This document shows positions 2,390 to 7,444 of a DNA stretch of 8,082 nucleotides, in pieces. Made by a program: the position numbers and the translations under genes. Source of the stretch: a virus (lineage: Duplodnaviria; Heunggongvirae; Uroviricota; Caudoviricetes); IMG/VR virus record IMGVR_UViG_2548876962_000007, one strand, 5' to 3'. Below the pieces are notes generated by a model, which ran no database searches, had not been told where the DNA came from, and saw nothing but the letters and a program-made list of their open reading frames with translations. Every line of letters starts with the position of its first letter. Position 1 is the first letter of the stretch.

Positions 2390-3094
2390 ATGTCCTCTAA
2401 TTTTGAACGTTCTCAGCAGACCAAAGTCATGATCTCGTCTGCACCGGTAACGGCAGAAACGCTGAGTTCTGCCAGTTTTCTTGAACTGAGCTGTACGATT
2501 AAAGAGGTTCAGTTTACCGCCGGGCAGAAACAGGATATTGATGTCACCACGCTGTGTTCTGTTGAGCAGGAAAATATTAATGGTCTTGGTGCCGCGTCAG
2601 AGATTTCCATGTCAGGCAACTTTTATCTGAATGCTGCCCAGAACGCGTTGCGCAGTGCCTATGACAATGACACCACGTATGGCTTTAAAGTTATTTTTCC
2701 GTCAGGCAACGGATTTACCTTTATGGCAGAGGTGCGTCAGCATACCTGGTCTGCAGGAACCAATGGAGTTGTGGCTGCAACGTTTTCCCTGCGCCTGAAA
2801 GGTAAACCTGTACTGACGACAGATCCACTGAAAGTGAAGGTCGATTTAAACAGCACGCTGCAGGTTTCTGCCGGAGCGAAACTCGAAATGGTGGTTGAGG
2901 CTGCCGGTGGTGTGCCGCCTTATTCTTATGTCTGGAAGAAAGGTGGTTCTCCTGTTTCCGGACAGACGGCGGCAACGTTCAGTAAGGCATCAGCAGCATC
3001 CGGTGATGCCGGTGCGTATACCTGCGAGATTTCTGATTCAGCAAGCCCGGTTAGCAAGGTGACCTCCACTTCCTGCACTGTTACCGTCAGTTAA
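2390..3094 (+). CDS. Major tail (tube) protein, lambda gpV-like, with a C-terminal Ig-like domain
   Basis: 234 aa. Strong RBS AGGAG (2379-2383) 6 nt before the ATG. The N-terminal two-thirds is tail-tube-like (...YGFKVIFPSGNGFTFMAEV... parallels the lambda gpV segment ...AYKIRFPNGTVDVFRG... as I recall it). The C-terminal roughly 90 aa (...PPYSYVWKKGG...GDAGAYTCEISDS...) has the character of an Ig-like domain. Confidence 0.85.
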   Translation: MSSNFERSQQTKVMISSAPVTAETLSSASFLELSCTIKEVQFTAGQKQDIDVTTLCSVEQENINGLGAASEISMSGNFYLNAAQNALRSAYDNDTTYGFKVIFPSGNGFTFMAEVRQHTWSAGTNGVVAATFSLRLKGKPVLTTDPLKVKVDLNSTLQVSAGAKLEMVVEAAGGVPPYSYVWKKGGSPVSGQTAATFSKASAASGDAGAYTCEISDSASPVSKVTSTSCTVTVS

Positions 3095-3480
3095 TGAGGA
3101 TAGATGTGATGACTAAAAATATCCGTAATCTGGCACTGGCAACGATGTCGGGGTTTCGCCATAAAACTGTTGATGTGCCTGAATGGGAAGGGGCAACGGT
3201 TGTATTACGGGAACCTTCTGCAGAAGCCTGGTTGCGCTGGCAGGAGATCGTTAAAGCAAAAGATGATGAGACACCGTTATCCGTTGCGGAGCGCGCCCGC
3301 CGAAATCTGGAGGCAGATGTTGAACTGTTCATTGATGTTCTGTGTGGTACCGGACTGCAACCTGTATTTTCAGAGGATGATCGTGAACAGGTGATTGCCG
3401 TGTATGGCCCGGTGCATGCGCGGCTTCTTCGGCAGTCTCTGGAACTGATCAGTGATGCCGGTGAGGTTAAAAAAAAGTAG
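3094..3480 (+). CDS. Tail assembly chaperone, lambda gpG-like (short product)
   Basis: 128-aa ORF immediately upstream of the tape measure region, ending ...GEVKKK-stop with a slippery A-run at its 3' end. The start is ambiguous: ATG 3094 overlaps the upstream stop (TAATG) but has no obvious RBS, whereas ATG 3109 has GAGGA 8 nt upstream. Confidence 0.8.
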   Translation: MRIDVMTKNIRNLALATMSGFRHKTVDVPEWEGATVVLREPSAEAWLRWQEIVKAKDDETPLSVAERARRNLEADVELFIDVLCGTGLQPVFSEDDREQVIAVYGPVHARLLRQSLELISDAGEVKKK

Positions 3481-3782
3481 CGCTTCCGGGGATGCGTTTT
3501 CTGATGATGCTGGCGCTCAGGATGGGGCGCACATTGTCAGAGTTACGCCGGGAAATGTCAGCATCAGAAATCATGATGTGGGCAGAATTTGACAGGTTCA
3601 GCCCGCTGGGGGACGAGCGGGCTGATATCCGGGCTGCCCAGATAGTTTCTGCGGTTTACGGTGCGCAGGGTGTCAAAGTCCCACTGAATGATGCGCTTCT
3701 TCAGTGGGAGCATGATTCAGAAGAAAATAAATGCGATGATCCATTTATTGGATTAGAGGTTGCTCTAATGTCTTCACTATAA
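3094..3782 (+). CDS. Tail assembly chaperone frameshift fusion product, lambda gpGT-like (-1 frameshift at 3471-3477)
   Basis: The downstream ORF (track 3492-3782) is in the -1 frame relative to the chaperone ORF, has no RBS of its own, and its frame opens exactly at the slippery site. The arrangement and position immediately before the tape measure gene match the conserved G/GT chaperone pair of long-tailed phages. Predicted fusion is about 229 aa. Confidence 0.7.
3471..3477 (+). promoter_or_regulatory. Programmed -1 ribosomal frameshift slippery heptamer A AAA AAG (G/GT type)
   Basis: The last two codons of the chaperone ORF are AAA AAG (3472-3477), preceded by A at 3471, i.e. the X XXY YYZ heptamer A AAA AAG. 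The -1 frame has a stop at 3468-3470 and is then open from 3471 through to 3782. A -1 slip here therefore reads ...KK then V-A-L-P-G-M-R-F-L... into the 3492-3782 ORF. Confidence 0.7.
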
Positions 3783-3840
3783 GATAATTTTTTAATCGTT
3801 TTGAAATTGAATGCTTAACTCAAAGTCAGGAGGATTAATC

Positions 3841-4182
3841 ATGAGAAAATCAGTGGTGACATTAGCTTGTTTGTTTTTTATTAGTGCATGTAAACCATCA
3901 GATAATTATGTTATTTCTTTAGGGGAAAACTTAGTTAAAGATAAGCTTATTGATCCTGATAGTGCAAAATTTAATTCTTTTTTTCATAAGTCAGGTGATT
4001 TATATGGTTATGTTTGTGGGGATGTTAATTCAAAAAACACGTTTGGTGGATATACAGGGAAAAAGCCATATTTTGTTTATTTGGAAGTTGTGGATGGAAA
4101 AGTTAAGAGTCATGGGACTGTAACAATTGTTAATGATCATGATCCAAGCAGTATGGAAAAATATAAGTTGTTTTGCCAATAA
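3841..4182 (+). CDS. Predicted lipoprotein of unknown function (moron, about 113 aa) inserted between the chaperone and tape measure genes
   Basis: Strong RBS AGGAGG (3828-3833) 7 nt before ATG 3841; the track's ATG 3811 has no RBS. N-terminus MRKSVVTLACLFFISAC-KPSD is a positively charged n-region, hydrophobic core and lipobox I-S-A-C. GC content is about 30% by my hand count, far below the flanking structural genes. A terminator follows directly. I do not recognise a known family. Confidence 0.75.
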   Translation: MRKSVVTLACLFFISACKPSDNYVISLGENLVKDKLIDPDSAKFNSFFHKSGDLYGYVCGDVNSKNTFGGYTGKKPYFVYLEVVDGKVKSHGTVTIVNDHDPSSMEKYKLFCQ

Positions 4183-4192
4183 TTATCATCTT

Positions 4193-4217
4193 AAAAAACC
4201 GCAGAAGCGGTTTTTTT
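4193..4217 (+). terminator. Intrinsic terminator downstream of the lipoprotein moron
   Basis: AAAAAACCGC (4193-4202) / GCGGTTTTTT (4207-4216) around the loop AGAA, followed by a run of seven Ts (4211-4217). It lies 11 nt after the lipoprotein stop. Confidence 0.55.
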
Positions 4218-4231
4218 ATGGGGTAAAGTAA

Positions 4232-7200
4232 ATGGCGACATTACGTGAACTGATTATTAAAATATCGGCAAACTCCCGGTCATTCCAGTCAGAGATCTCC
4301 CGGGCTTCGCGTTTGGGGCAGGATTACTACCGCACCATGCAGAACGGAGGCCGGCAGTCCGCTGCGGCATCCCGTGAAATGCGGCGTGCACTGGCAGAAG
4401 TGACGGATCAGATAAATACAGCTAAATCTTCGGCACTGAATATGGCGGGGGCATTTGCCGGAGCTTTTGCTACCGGTCATCTTATTTCTCTCGCCGATGA
4501 GTGGAATTCAGTAAATGCCCGTCTGAAGCAGGCCTCACAGTCCAGTGATGATTTTCAGGCATCACAGCGTGAATTAATGGCGATCAGCCAGAGAACGGGG
4601 ACGGCGTTTTCTGATAACGCCAGCCTTTTTGCCCGTTCTGCAGCTTCCATGCGGGAGTATGGTTACAGTTCTGAGGAGGTACTGAAAGTCACCGAGGCGA
4701 TCTCCACGGGCCTGAAATTATCCGGTGCCAGTACAGCAGAAGCCAGTTCGGTGATCACGCAGTTCAGTCAGGCTCTGGCGCAGGGAGTGCTGCGTGGTGA
4801 AGAGTTTAACTCGGTGAATGAGAACGGCGATCGTGTTATTCGTGCGCTGGCTGCGGGAATGGGAGTTGCCCGTAAGGATCTGAAGGCCATGGCGGATAAC
4901 GGAAAACTGACCGCCGATAAGGTTGTTCCTGCACTGATTAGTCAGCTTGGGGCATTACGTGATGAATATGCGGCAATGCCTGATACGGTTTCATCCTCTG
5001 CAACCAAAGTTGAAAACGCCTTTATGGCCTGGGTTGGTGGTGCGAACGAGGCAAGCGGAGTGACGAAGACGCTCTCCGGTGTGCTGAATGGTATTGCAGG
5101 CAATATTGACACCGTGGCAACCGCTGCCGGTGCTCTGGTTGCCGTCGGGGTAGCCCGATATTTTGGCAATATGGCGTCTTCTGCTGGTTCTGCAACTGCC
5201 GGGCTAATCACTGCGGCCAGAAACGAAGTGGCTCTTGCGGAAGCGCAGCTCCGGGGGACGCAGATAGCAACCGCCAGGGCGCGTGCGGCAGTTTATCGTG
5301 CGCAACAGGCGGTTGCTGCTGCTCGCGGTACCGAAAGGCAGGCAGCCGCAGAATCGAAACTGGCTGCTGCCCAGGCGTCACTTACCCGTAATATTGCGGC
5401 CAGAACAGCAGCACAGACAACGCTGAATACTGTCACGTCAGTGGGAAGTCGTCTGTTAAGTGGAGCACTGGGACTGGTTGGTGGGGTGCCGGGGCTTGTC
5501 ATGCTGGGGGCCGCGGCCAGGTACACGATGTATCAGAATCAGGAGCAGGCCAGAGAATCTGCACGCCAGTATGCCGCAACAATCGACGAAATTCGCCAGA
5601 AAACGTCGGCAATGTCACTTCCTGAAGCGGCAGATAATGAAGAAAAGACGCGACAGGCTCTGGAGGAGCAGAATCGCCTGATTGGTGAGCAGGAAGGAAA
5701 GATTCGTGGACTGAAAAATCAGATTGCAGATTATCAACGCTGGCTTGATGAAAGTCCGCAGAGTGGTTCGGGTGCTGAAATCATCCTTAAAGGGCTTGCC
5801 GAAGCAACAAATCAACTGGCAGTTGAACAATCCCGTCTCACTCAAATGCAGGGCAAAGCGCAATCCATTCAGGATGTGCTTGCCGGGCTGGAGGAGCGCC
5901 GGGTGGCGTTGATCCGTCAACAGGCAGCGGAACAAAACAAAGCGTATCAGTCCCTGTTGATCATGAATGGGCAGCATACCGAGTTTAATCGCCTTCTCGG
6001 GCTCGGTAATGAATTACTTCAGCAGCGACAGGGGCTGGTGAATGTACCATTACGGCTGCCACAGGCAACCCTGGATGATAAACAGCAGACCGCGCTGAAT
6101 AACAGCGAGCGCGAACTGGCTCTGTCCCGCCTGAAGGGGGAAGCCCGTGAGCGTGCCCGCCTGGGTTATGCTGCGGATGATCTCGGCTTTGTGGGAGAGG
6201 CGTATCAGACAGCCAGACAGAATTATATCAATAACTCACTGGATGCCTGGCGAAATAACCAGGCAAATAAACCCAAAGCGCATAAAAAGACCGAAGCGGA
6301 AAAAACAGAAGATATTTATAAACGGCTGATTAAACAGCAAAAAGAACAGATAGCACTGGCAGGGCAGAATACTGAACTGGCTAAGATGAAATATCAGGTC
6401 AGTCAGGGCGAATTATCAACCCTGTCAGAAGCGCAGAAAAAAACGCTTTTACAGAATGCAGCACTCATCGACCAGAAAAAGATTCGTGAGCAGCTTGCCG
6501 CGTATGAAAGCAGTCTGGCGGACAGTAATGCCAGTGCCCGGGCATCTGACGACGCGCAGTTGCTGGGATATGGTGAAGGCTCACGGATGCGTGAACGACT
6601 CCAGGAAATGTGGAGTATCCGGCATGAGTTTGAGCAGAAAAATAACGAGCTGCTGAGACAGTATCAGGCCGGAGAAATTGAAGAAGCCCTGTGGAAACAG
6701 GAAAAATCGCTGAATGAAAAATATCTGGAAGAGCGTCTCAGCGATCAGCAGGATTATTATGCAAAGGCTGATGCTTTACGCAGTGACTGGAATGCCGGCC
6801 TCCAGGAGGGACTGACGAACTGGGCAGACAGTGCCACCGATTATGCTTCGCAGGCGGCAGATGCTGTCGTTTCCACTATGGACGGGCTGGTATCAAATAT
6901 TTCCGATGCACTGGCCGGAAATGTTGTGGACTGGAGAAACTGGGGGAGTTCAATTCTCCAGGAAGTTTCAAAAATTCTGATGAACGCTGCCATCGTTAAC
7001 GGGCTGAAGTCACTTTCCAAAAGCATGTCCGGTGCCGGAGGATGGCTTGGTACGGTCGGCGACTGGCTTTCCGGTGCAGTGGCAAACGCAAAAGGTGGTG
7101 TTTACACATCGGCAAATCTGAGTGCTTACAGTAACACTATTGTGGATACACCGACGTATTTTGCTTTTGCGAAAGGTGCCGGGCTGATGGGCGAGGCCGG

Positions 7201-7444
7201 GCCTGAAGCTATCATGCCACTGACACGGGCAGCGGACGGCTCTCTTGGGGTCAGAGCCATTGGCAATGTGAATGGTGGCGGGGGATTTGTTTATTCTCCC
7301 GTGTATCACATCAGTATTCAGAATAAAGGGAGCAATGGCGAGATAGATACGCAGTCAGCCAGGGGGCTGGTGGAACTGATCGACAGCAGGGTTGTGTCAA
7401 TTATGCAGTCATCACGTCGGGACGGAGGATTATGCAGTGCCTGA
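4232..7444 (+). CDS. Tail tape measure protein (lambda gpH-like C-terminal region)
   Basis: 1070-aa uninterrupted ORF directly after the chaperone pair. It has an Ala/Gln/Arg/Glu-rich, coiled-coil-like central region and two hydrophobic segments (about 5080-5170 and 5450-5530). The C-terminal region (...AIMPLTRAADGSLGVRAIGNVNGGGGF...) resembles the C-terminal part of lambda gpH as I recall it. Confidence 0.92.
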   Translation: MATLRELIIKISANSRSFQSEISRASRLGQDYYRTMQNGGRQSAAASREMRRALAEVTDQINTAKSSALNMAGAFAGAFATGHLISLADEWNSVNARLKQASQSSDDFQASQRELMAISQRTGTAFSDNASLFARSAASMREYGYSSEEVLKVTEAISTGLKLSGASTAEASSVITQFSQALAQGVLRGEEFNSVNENGDRVIRALAAGMGVARKDLKAMADNGKLTADKVVPALISQLGALRDEYAAMPDTVSSSATKVENAFMAWVGGANEASGVTKTLSGVLNGIAGNIDTVATAAGALVAVGVARYFGNMASSAGSATAGLITAARNEVALAEAQLRGTQIATARARAAVYRAQQAVAAARGTERQAAAESKLAAAQASLTRNIAARTAAQTTLNTVTSVGSRLLSGALGLVGGVPGLVMLGAAARYTMYQNQEQARESARQYAATIDEIRQKTSAMSLPEAADNEEKTRQALEEQNRLIGEQEGKIRGLKNQIADYQRWLDESPQSGSGAEIILKGLAEATNQLAVEQSRLTQMQGKAQSIQDVLAGLEERRVALIRQQAAEQNKAYQSLLIMNGQHTEFNRLLGLGNELLQQRQGLVNVPLRLPQATLDDKQQTALNNSERELALSRLKGEARERARLGYAADDLGFVGEAYQTARQNYINNSLDAWRNNQANKPKAHKKTEAEKTEDIYKRLIKQQKEQIALAGQNTELAKMKYQVSQGELSTLSEAQKKTLLQNAALIDQKKIREQLAAYESSLADSNASARASDDAQLLGYGEGSRMRERLQEMWSIRHEFEQKNNELLRQYQAGEIEEALWKQEKSLNEKYLEERLSDQQDYYAKADALRSDWNAGLQEGLTNWADSATDYASQAADAVVSTMDGLVSNISDALAGNVVDWRNWGSSILQEVSKILMNAAIVNGLKSLSKSMSGAGGWLGTVGDWLSGAVANAKGGVYTSANLSAYSNTIVDTPTYFAFAKGAGLMGEAGPEAIMPLTRAADGSLGVRAIGNVNGGGGFVYSPVYHISIQNKGSNGEIDTQSARGLVELIDSRVVSIMQSSRRDGGLCSA

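Follow-up and report, generated by a model that had tools for sequence, protein, structure and literature searches.

The question raised by this locus is what a small, AT-rich lipoprotein gene is doing between the tail assembly chaperone and tape measure genes of a phage, and whether it belongs there. The gene lies in the 8,082 nt stretch of IMG/VR record IMGVR_UViG_2548876962_000007 that was analysed in full (the window), which is 100% identical to an HK97-like prophage in Escherichia coli strain 377323_2f (NZ_CP039404.1). On its position and composition the gene is a moron, and its product is very probably an accessory lipoprotein of the cell envelope. The original prediction, made from the sequence, put the guanine-plus-cytosine (GC) content of the gene at about 30% between flanks of around half, and the measured values agree: GC is 0.304 in the lipoprotein gene, with 0.193 at third codon positions, against 0.504 in the chaperone genes G/T and 0.530 in the tape measure gene. 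In 200 nt windows, GC is 0.29–0.32 across positions 3701–4200 and 0.46–0.56 on both sides.

The gene is present in some prophages and absent from the same place in others. Of 5,426 complete E. coli genomes surveyed, 904 have this T/tape-measure junction and 18 of those carry the lipoprotein cassette, a frequency of 0.3% among the complete genomes, with the open reading frame (ORF) intact in 18 of 18. The majority of the 904 junctions are empty and about 404 bp shorter, spanning some 797 bp rather than the 1201 bp of the filled span, and the flanks of filled and empty alleles are 97–98% identical. Other junctions hold different cargo, which in the complete genomes is a zinc-ribbon membrane protein gene in 43 cases and a gp15/YebO-type gene in six. 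Comparison of related prophages, as the original prediction had suggested, therefore bears out the insertion of a horizontally mobile moron between G/GT and the tape measure gene. That the cassette might be a fixed part of this tail module was considered and rejected for E. coli, in which about 98% of the junctions are without it. In the wider clade, the lipoprotein gene appears to be a long-standing resident of the slot.

The borders of the insert are not quite where they had been placed. A self-contained cassette of about 450 bp starting at position 3783 was predicted; there is a separate insert, but its left edge is at 3710, inside T. Alignment with an empty allele gives identity as far as ...CAGTGGGA at 3709 and resumes at the start of the tape measure gene, 4232. 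The swapped segment between these points contains the AT-rich 3' end of T, a leader, the lipoprotein gene, a hairpin, and a spacer, so that the last 24 codons of T (3710–3782) fall within it. The T tails of the filled and empty alleles show their relationship in the protein (DPFIGLE versus DPFAGLE) and not in the DNA. With the segment 3710–4231, the cassette therefore brings in an AT-rich T C-terminus of its own.

The hairpin 3' of the lipoprotein gene resembles an intrinsic terminator, with a folding free energy of −15.3 kcal/mol and z = −4.7 against shuffled sequences. It was overlooked by a simple terminator scanner because the A/T extension of its stem consumes the T-run. It had been put forward as the terminator of the cassette itself. 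The strong hairpin with its T-run stands, but the empty allele retains an equivalent (AACCGCttcgGCGGTTTTTTTT) between T and the tape measure gene, as do the zinc-ribbon allele, HK97 and ES18 (Table 1), which indicates that the terminator belongs to the junction and that the cargo sits upstream of it. The hairpin may be a landing pad for morons or a leftover of their turnover, and late transcription must read through it.

Two further observations concern the exchange of the cassette. Two E. coli cassette alleles, window 3783–4192 and that of locus L023, have 92.4% DNA identity with a synonymous divergence (dS) of 0.27, and the whole 1.2 kb query including the cassette is 95.8% identical between the same two alleles. 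That the cassettes are more divergent than their flanks suggests exchange independent of the flanks. In IMG/VR contig L028 (4067–6342), the 3' end of T (SGDPFAGLEAALLAAS) is duplicated around a 1.6 kb insert with a KilA-N/P63C gene, directly upstream of the lipoprotein gene, and this duplication is a footprint of cassette exchange, showing that the T 3' end serves as the anchor for recombination.

Table 1. Positions of the cassette, its signals and the neighbouring genes in the window, with the corresponding hairpins at other loci.
Feature	Position	Strand	Details
Lipoprotein gene, 113 amino acids	3841..4182	+	identical to RefSeq WP_071605788.1 "hypothetical protein"; phrog_2320, 2e-33
Signal peptide (residues 1–16) and lipidated Cys17 (predicted)	3841..3891	+	lipobox I-S-A-C, then K-P-S
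Shine-Dalgarno sequence AGGAGG	3828..3833	+	7 nt 5' of ATG
Weak candidate σ70 promoter, TTGCTC-N17-GATAAT	3760..3788	+	8/12 matches, manual scan; overlaps T stop codon
Intrinsic-terminator-like hairpin (AAAAAACCGC agaa GCGGTTTTTT)	4193..4217	+	stem-loop 4193–4216, T-run to 4217
Swapped segment, replacing about 118 bp of the empty allele	3710..4231	+	alignment with E. coli EC12
Tail assembly chaperone G	3094..3480	+	Pfam Phage_TAC_1, 7e-58; context, outside the cassette
T part of the G/GT chaperone	3492..3782	+	Pfam Phage_tail_T, 4e-18; −1 frame of G
HK97-type tape measure protein	4232..7444	+	Pfam TMP_3 8e-58, Phage_HK97_TLTM 8e-82, Tape_meas_lam_C 6e-14; context
Terminator-like chaperone/tape-measure hairpins	L001 1893–1913; L004 1792–1812; L010 899–923; L003 4321–4342		present in every allele, including the empty one

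The slot itself is not new. The original prediction treated the gene as an unusual interruption of a conserved junction, and in this it overrated the novelty: the junction between the chaperone and tape measure genes is a recombination hot spot and a natural cargo slot of HK97-like prophages, and it is the textbook moron setting. Gene 15 of HK97 is located between the chaperone and tape measure genes, and is the element for which the term "moron" was first coined (PMC3594210). Like the window gene, it lies upstream of an HK97-type tape measure gene, is AT-rich (GC 0.33), has a strong Shine-Dalgarno sequence and encodes a small envelope protein. A hairpin terminator comes after it, and a short spacer much like that in the window (TTTTTTTATGGG...) leads up to the start of the tape measure gene. 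The products differ, gp15 being a single-pass inner-membrane protein of 62 amino acids and the window protein a 113 amino acid lipoprotein with a predicted outer-membrane location. The alternative cargo in E. coli ECONIH1 (L004 1442–1783) also encodes 113 amino acids, with two predicted membrane helices and a zinc ribbon, and has a GC content of 0.42.

The slot in Salmonella phage ES18 is occupied by three genes with the annotation "possible moron", and the last of these, gp20, is homologous to the window lipoprotein (41% identity over the core, pairwise E 5e-15), so that a homologue in this very place already bears that annotation. ES18 gp20 is likewise a lipoprotein, with an LTAC lipobox, both cysteines and the DPESAKF and VNAKNSYGGYTG motifs, and its gene is directly upstream of the tape measure gene with a hairpin of its own and a GC content of 0.40, compared with 0.53 in its neighbours. 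It differs in its length of 151 amino acids, which includes a longer linker after the lipobox, and in following two more morons (gp18 and gp19). The chaperone and tape measure genes of ES18 are of a different type from those in the window.

The signals around the lipoprotein gene were examined next to those of its relatives. The strong ribosome-binding site that had been predicted is present, and purine runs like a Shine-Dalgarno sequence are found in every relative examined. A longer ORF starting at 3811 was considered as the gene and rejected; RefSeq annotates the 342 bp version, and the homologues begin MRK or MKK. The predicted σ70 promoter fared less well. A manual scan gives a candidate, but no site on the + strand upstream of the gene passed the promoter scan. 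The same TTGCTC-N17-GATAAT arrangement is conserved in an 86%-identical relative (L011), and other lineages have GTGACA-N17/18-TAGGAT or TAGCAT, elements with 9/12 matches at a fixed distance, 27–29 nt 5' of the start.

The ratio of nonsynonymous to synonymous substitution (dN/dS) for the lipoprotein gene is 0.09–0.27 against its relatives, with dS up to saturation. To judge from this pattern, it is a real coding gene under purifying selection, in line with the coding conservation expected of it. Relatives in the T/tape-measure slot with 48–86% identity are still AT-rich, at GC 0.32–0.36 compared with 0.49–0.54 in their neighbours, and so have not become host-like in composition, as was also expected. 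The sole minus-strand ORF within the cassette (49 amino acids) was judged to be a chance ORF.

The N-terminus of the product, MRK-SVVTLACLFFISA-C17-KPS (TLACLFFISAC), satisfies a PROSITE-type lipoprotein rule, which calls for a positive n-region with Arg or Lys among the first seven residues, a hydrophobic h-region, and a lipobox [LVI][ASTVI][GAS]C with the Cys at 15–35. The h-region SVVTLACLFFI has a mean Kyte-Doolittle hydropathy of 2.3, and ACKPS is invariant across the close clade. Residues 1–20 are matched by hhalign to the HK022 Cor and lambda Bor signal peptides, and no other part aligns. The lipobox ISAC and the Lys at +2 are thus as originally described. In E. coli, a lipoprotein without Asp at +2 is sorted to the outer membrane under the +2 (Lol) rule, and the Lys at this position predicts Lol-dependent outer-membrane sorting of the window lipoprotein.

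The mature part is 97 amino acids long. The two further cysteines that had been noted in it are Cys59 and Cys112, and this pair is kept in the clade and in 128 of 137 distant family representatives, which fits a periplasmic disulfide. A confident AlphaFold2 model, with a predicted local distance difference test (pLDDT) score of 87.8, consists of a helix, a sheet of four strands and a second helix at the C-terminus, and by this model the fold would be a generic NTF2/cystatin-like alpha+beta domain.

The protein matches phrog_2320 over its full length (residues 1–113), a family annotated "unknown function", and no PHROG family with a functional annotation was matched. A profile of the clade retrieved 9,877 cluster representatives (E ≤ 1e-3) from a library clustered at 50%, for which there is no Pfam model. 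Most of the representatives carry a lipobox or signal peptide and share the Cys pair, and the family is marked by the motifs L-x-DP-x-SA-x-F and VCG-x-VN-A/S-KN-x-x-GGY-x-G. The window protein is indistinguishable from the members of phrog_2320 and of this wider "DPxSAxF / VNAKN-GGY" lipoprotein superfamily. Certain members are fused to a C-terminal SPOR domain, a periplasmic module that binds septal peptidoglycan, and this counts in favour of an envelope location. One of these is encoded in Pseudomonas phage AUS531phi (L007 3001–3654), a P. aeruginosa prophage, between K and I, and the SPOR-fused cluster P0066 has 57 member sequences at 90% clustering. The names of the cluster members are uninformative ("hypothetical", "lipoprotein", "SPOR domain-containing"), and a search of the literature on the accession, the PHROG, ES18 gp20 and lipoprotein morons at this junction found no characterization.

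The genomic placement of the close relatives is strongly biased towards tail operons. Among the 80 closest viral loci, the gene is within a siphovirus tail operon in 76, with four unplaced. It is directly upstream of the tape measure gene in 39 (T was also detected upstream in 38), downstream of K in 31 (followed by X or I in 30, as in phage Fraca), and directly downstream of the tape measure gene in six. Relatives with 45–100% identity, in Citrobacter, Enterobacter, Salmonella and metagenomic viruses, are in the same T/tape-measure slot, also where the tail-tip modules differ, and more distant relatives in Xenorhabdus, Janthinobacterium, Campylobacter concisus, Brenneria and Atlantibacter are again just upstream of a tape measure gene. 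Other relatives are found by a P2-like phage integrase, by an O-antigen acetylase in PAJU2, and by a toxin-immunity pair in M. abscessus prophages, and a brief, unquantified look at the neighbours of distant chromosomal relatives gave a mixture of prophage-like and apparently core contexts. The identity of the lipoprotein is correlated with that of T, G and the tape measure protein (rank correlation rho 0.49–0.61), a figure that is not phylogenetically independent and is not used as evidence. In the K/I slot (phage Fraca, L002 4355–4690, and approximately 30 IMG/VR loci), a conserved ORF of 111 amino acids with no Pfam match invariably comes after the lipoprotein gene, and the two may form a two-gene cassette.

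As for what the lipoprotein does, a block to phage entry in the lysogen is the most likely of the roles considered but a tentative proposal, with somewhat less than an even chance of being correct. It is made because the clade favours slots flanking the tape measure gene, because gp15 is encoded in the same slot, and because there is a precedent in P-FimU, which is encoded in the tail operons of Pseudomonas phages and excludes related phages (PMC12952977). The gp15 protein is expressed from the prophage and acts in exclusion at the inner membrane, with a specificity that has been mapped to the tail (PMC3594210). The product of the window gene would carry its lipid on Cys17 and be brought by Lol to the inner face of the outer membrane, displaying a disulfide-stabilized, NTF2/cystatin-like alpha+beta domain of 96 residues in the periplasm. 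Synthesis would take place in the lysogen and, through transcription reading on along the tail operon, late in infection as well, and the protein would act at the envelope to stop DNA entry of related siphophages. It might bind an outer-membrane receptor on the side facing the periplasm, as do T5 Llp and Cor, or interfere with a periplasmic, tape-measure-dependent step, which gp15 blocks from the inner membrane. Cor (HK022, phi80 and N15) and Llp are, like the window protein, small phage lipoproteins with genes linked to tail genes, and as receptor-blocking proteins they offer a plausible analogy for an entry block by an outer-membrane lipoprotein facing the periplasm, Llp being likened to it by description rather than by sequence.

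Several points weigh against an entry-blocking moron. The mature domain is not homologous to Cor, Bor or gp15: hhalign aligns nothing of Cor beyond the 20-residue HK022 Cor signal peptide, and for gp15/YebO it gives a probability of 0.1%, so that the genomic slot is all that is shared with gp15. This agrees with the earlier impression that the protein resembles none of the known morons. Exclusion has been demonstrated for gp15 and is inferred for the window lipoprotein; the promoter is a weak candidate, and expression from the repressed prophage is therefore conjectural. Tail-operon slots are where morons are tolerated, and linkage to the tape measure gene may therefore mean nothing functionally. 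The wider family also occurs outside tail operons, including apparently in the core chromosome, and the domain therefore need not be phage-specific. Neither structure comparison nor a profile search of PDB sequences found a significant relative of solved structure (the PDB hits were at chance level, E ≥ 0.6), a BFVD search matched only other unnamed phage lipoproteins, and there was nothing for the protein in Pfam (no match at E ≤ 0.1), NCBIfam or PADLOC (0 families at E ≤ 1). Two of the 18 carrier strains also harbour another prophage with this type of junction, which speaks neither for nor against self-exclusion.

A factor in host fitness or lysogenic conversion, which would alter the envelope so as to affect serum or stress resistance, adhesion or colonization, is an unlikely alternative to entry blocking, if the foremost of them. 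Its model is lambda Bor, a serum-resistance lipoprotein moron. Like the window protein, Bor (PF06291) is a prophage outer-membrane lipoprotein of about 100 amino acids encoded by an AT-rich add-on gene, and the signal peptides align. The conversion genes beside some relatives (the O-antigen acetylase in PAJU2 and a polymorphic toxin cassette in M. abscessus prophages) point the same way, as do the isolation sources of the 18 carriers, which are human, cattle, chicken, mouse and soil. However, homology to Bor by hhalign is confined to residues 1–20, with no match to Pfam Lambda_Bor, so that the mature domains are not homologous, and bor adjoins the lysis genes rather than the tape measure gene. 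A fitness role would also leave the bias of the close relatives towards tail operons and tape measure genes unexplained, and sits poorly with a gene found in so few E. coli genomes.

Somewhat less probable again is a periplasmic binder or inhibitor directed against the cell wall, an incoming enzyme or a toxin, such as an inhibitor of peptidoglycan hydrolases or a protein resembling colicin or type VI immunity proteins. Conservation of the two motifs is very strong and suggests a single ligand site. The SPOR domain to which some relatives are fused binds peptidoglycan, the cystatin/NTF2-like fold class includes, at low Z, protease inhibitors and the colicin M immunity protein, and a relative in an M. 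abscessus prophage lies beside a toxin-immunity pair.

The position of the gene inside the late operon and in its orientation, together with its weak promoter, favours a further, improbable explanation in which the protein is made only in the lytic cycle, as a late read-through product that masks the receptor on dying cells and cell debris and so spares the progeny ("lytic conversion", as for T5 Llp). Since the hairpin is also present in empty alleles, late transcription evidently crosses it. Yet the persistent AT-richness and the promoter-like elements in several lineages fit independent expression, and the mechanism overlaps with entry blocking in the lysogen to the point that the two are inseparable here.

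The gene is rare in E. coli, and the identical prophage has portal and protease genes that are annotated as frameshifted, both of which might indicate a neutral passenger or decaying remnant. This is very unlikely given the intact ORF in all carriers, the low dN/dS, and the conservation of lipobox, Cys pair and motifs over thousands of relatives. A virion or tail-assembly component is scarcely credible, as nothing more than position among tail genes favours it, while virions assemble in the cytoplasm and the protein bears a Sec/lipoprotein signal along with a conserved pair of disulfide cysteines, and the gene is missing from about 98% of otherwise near-identical tail modules.

To return to entry blocking, a broader and distinctly speculative version can be drawn from it. 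The "DPxSAxF / VNAKN-GGY" lipoproteins as a whole might be a widespread, unrecognized class of superinfection exclusion proteins, linked to the tail modules of temperate siphophages of Gram-negative hosts and acting from the inner face of the outer membrane, where they would either stop an incoming tail or its DNA from crossing the periplasm in the tape-measure-dependent step or lock a receptor. Were this so, the excluder and the entry machinery that it recognizes would stay together through the linkage to the tape measure gene. Across complete E. coli genomes, the slot is home to no fewer than three small envelope proteins unrelated to one another, of which gp15 is a proven excluder, and this very large family, without a Pfam model, recurs beside the tape measure genes of phages from several genera. 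A functional assignment could extend to thousands of "hypothetical lipoproteins" and could bear on whether the cargo of the slot generally targets the DNA-entry step; without an effect on phage infection, the gene would be one more uncharacterized moron.

The gene order in the window is major capsid, head-tail connectors, Ig-domain tail tube, G, T, the lipoprotein ORF, tape measure, and minor tail protein M. A slippery heptamer, A_AAA_AAG, is present at 3468–3474, just 5' of the G stop codon (within the region 3468–3480), which with T in the −1 frame makes G and T a classical G/GT pair with a programmed frameshift site. An Rfam scan of the window found no RNA family. Within the tape measure gene, window positions 6201–6500 have a local dip in GC to 0.405–0.42 with a strong AT skew (0.38–0.46), in a Lys/Glu-rich stretch. 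The frameshifted portal and prohead protease annotations of the identical prophage are at L005 14152–16020 in NZ_CP039404.1 and may reflect either a defective prophage or sequencing errors; the same strain carries a second T/tape-measure junction.

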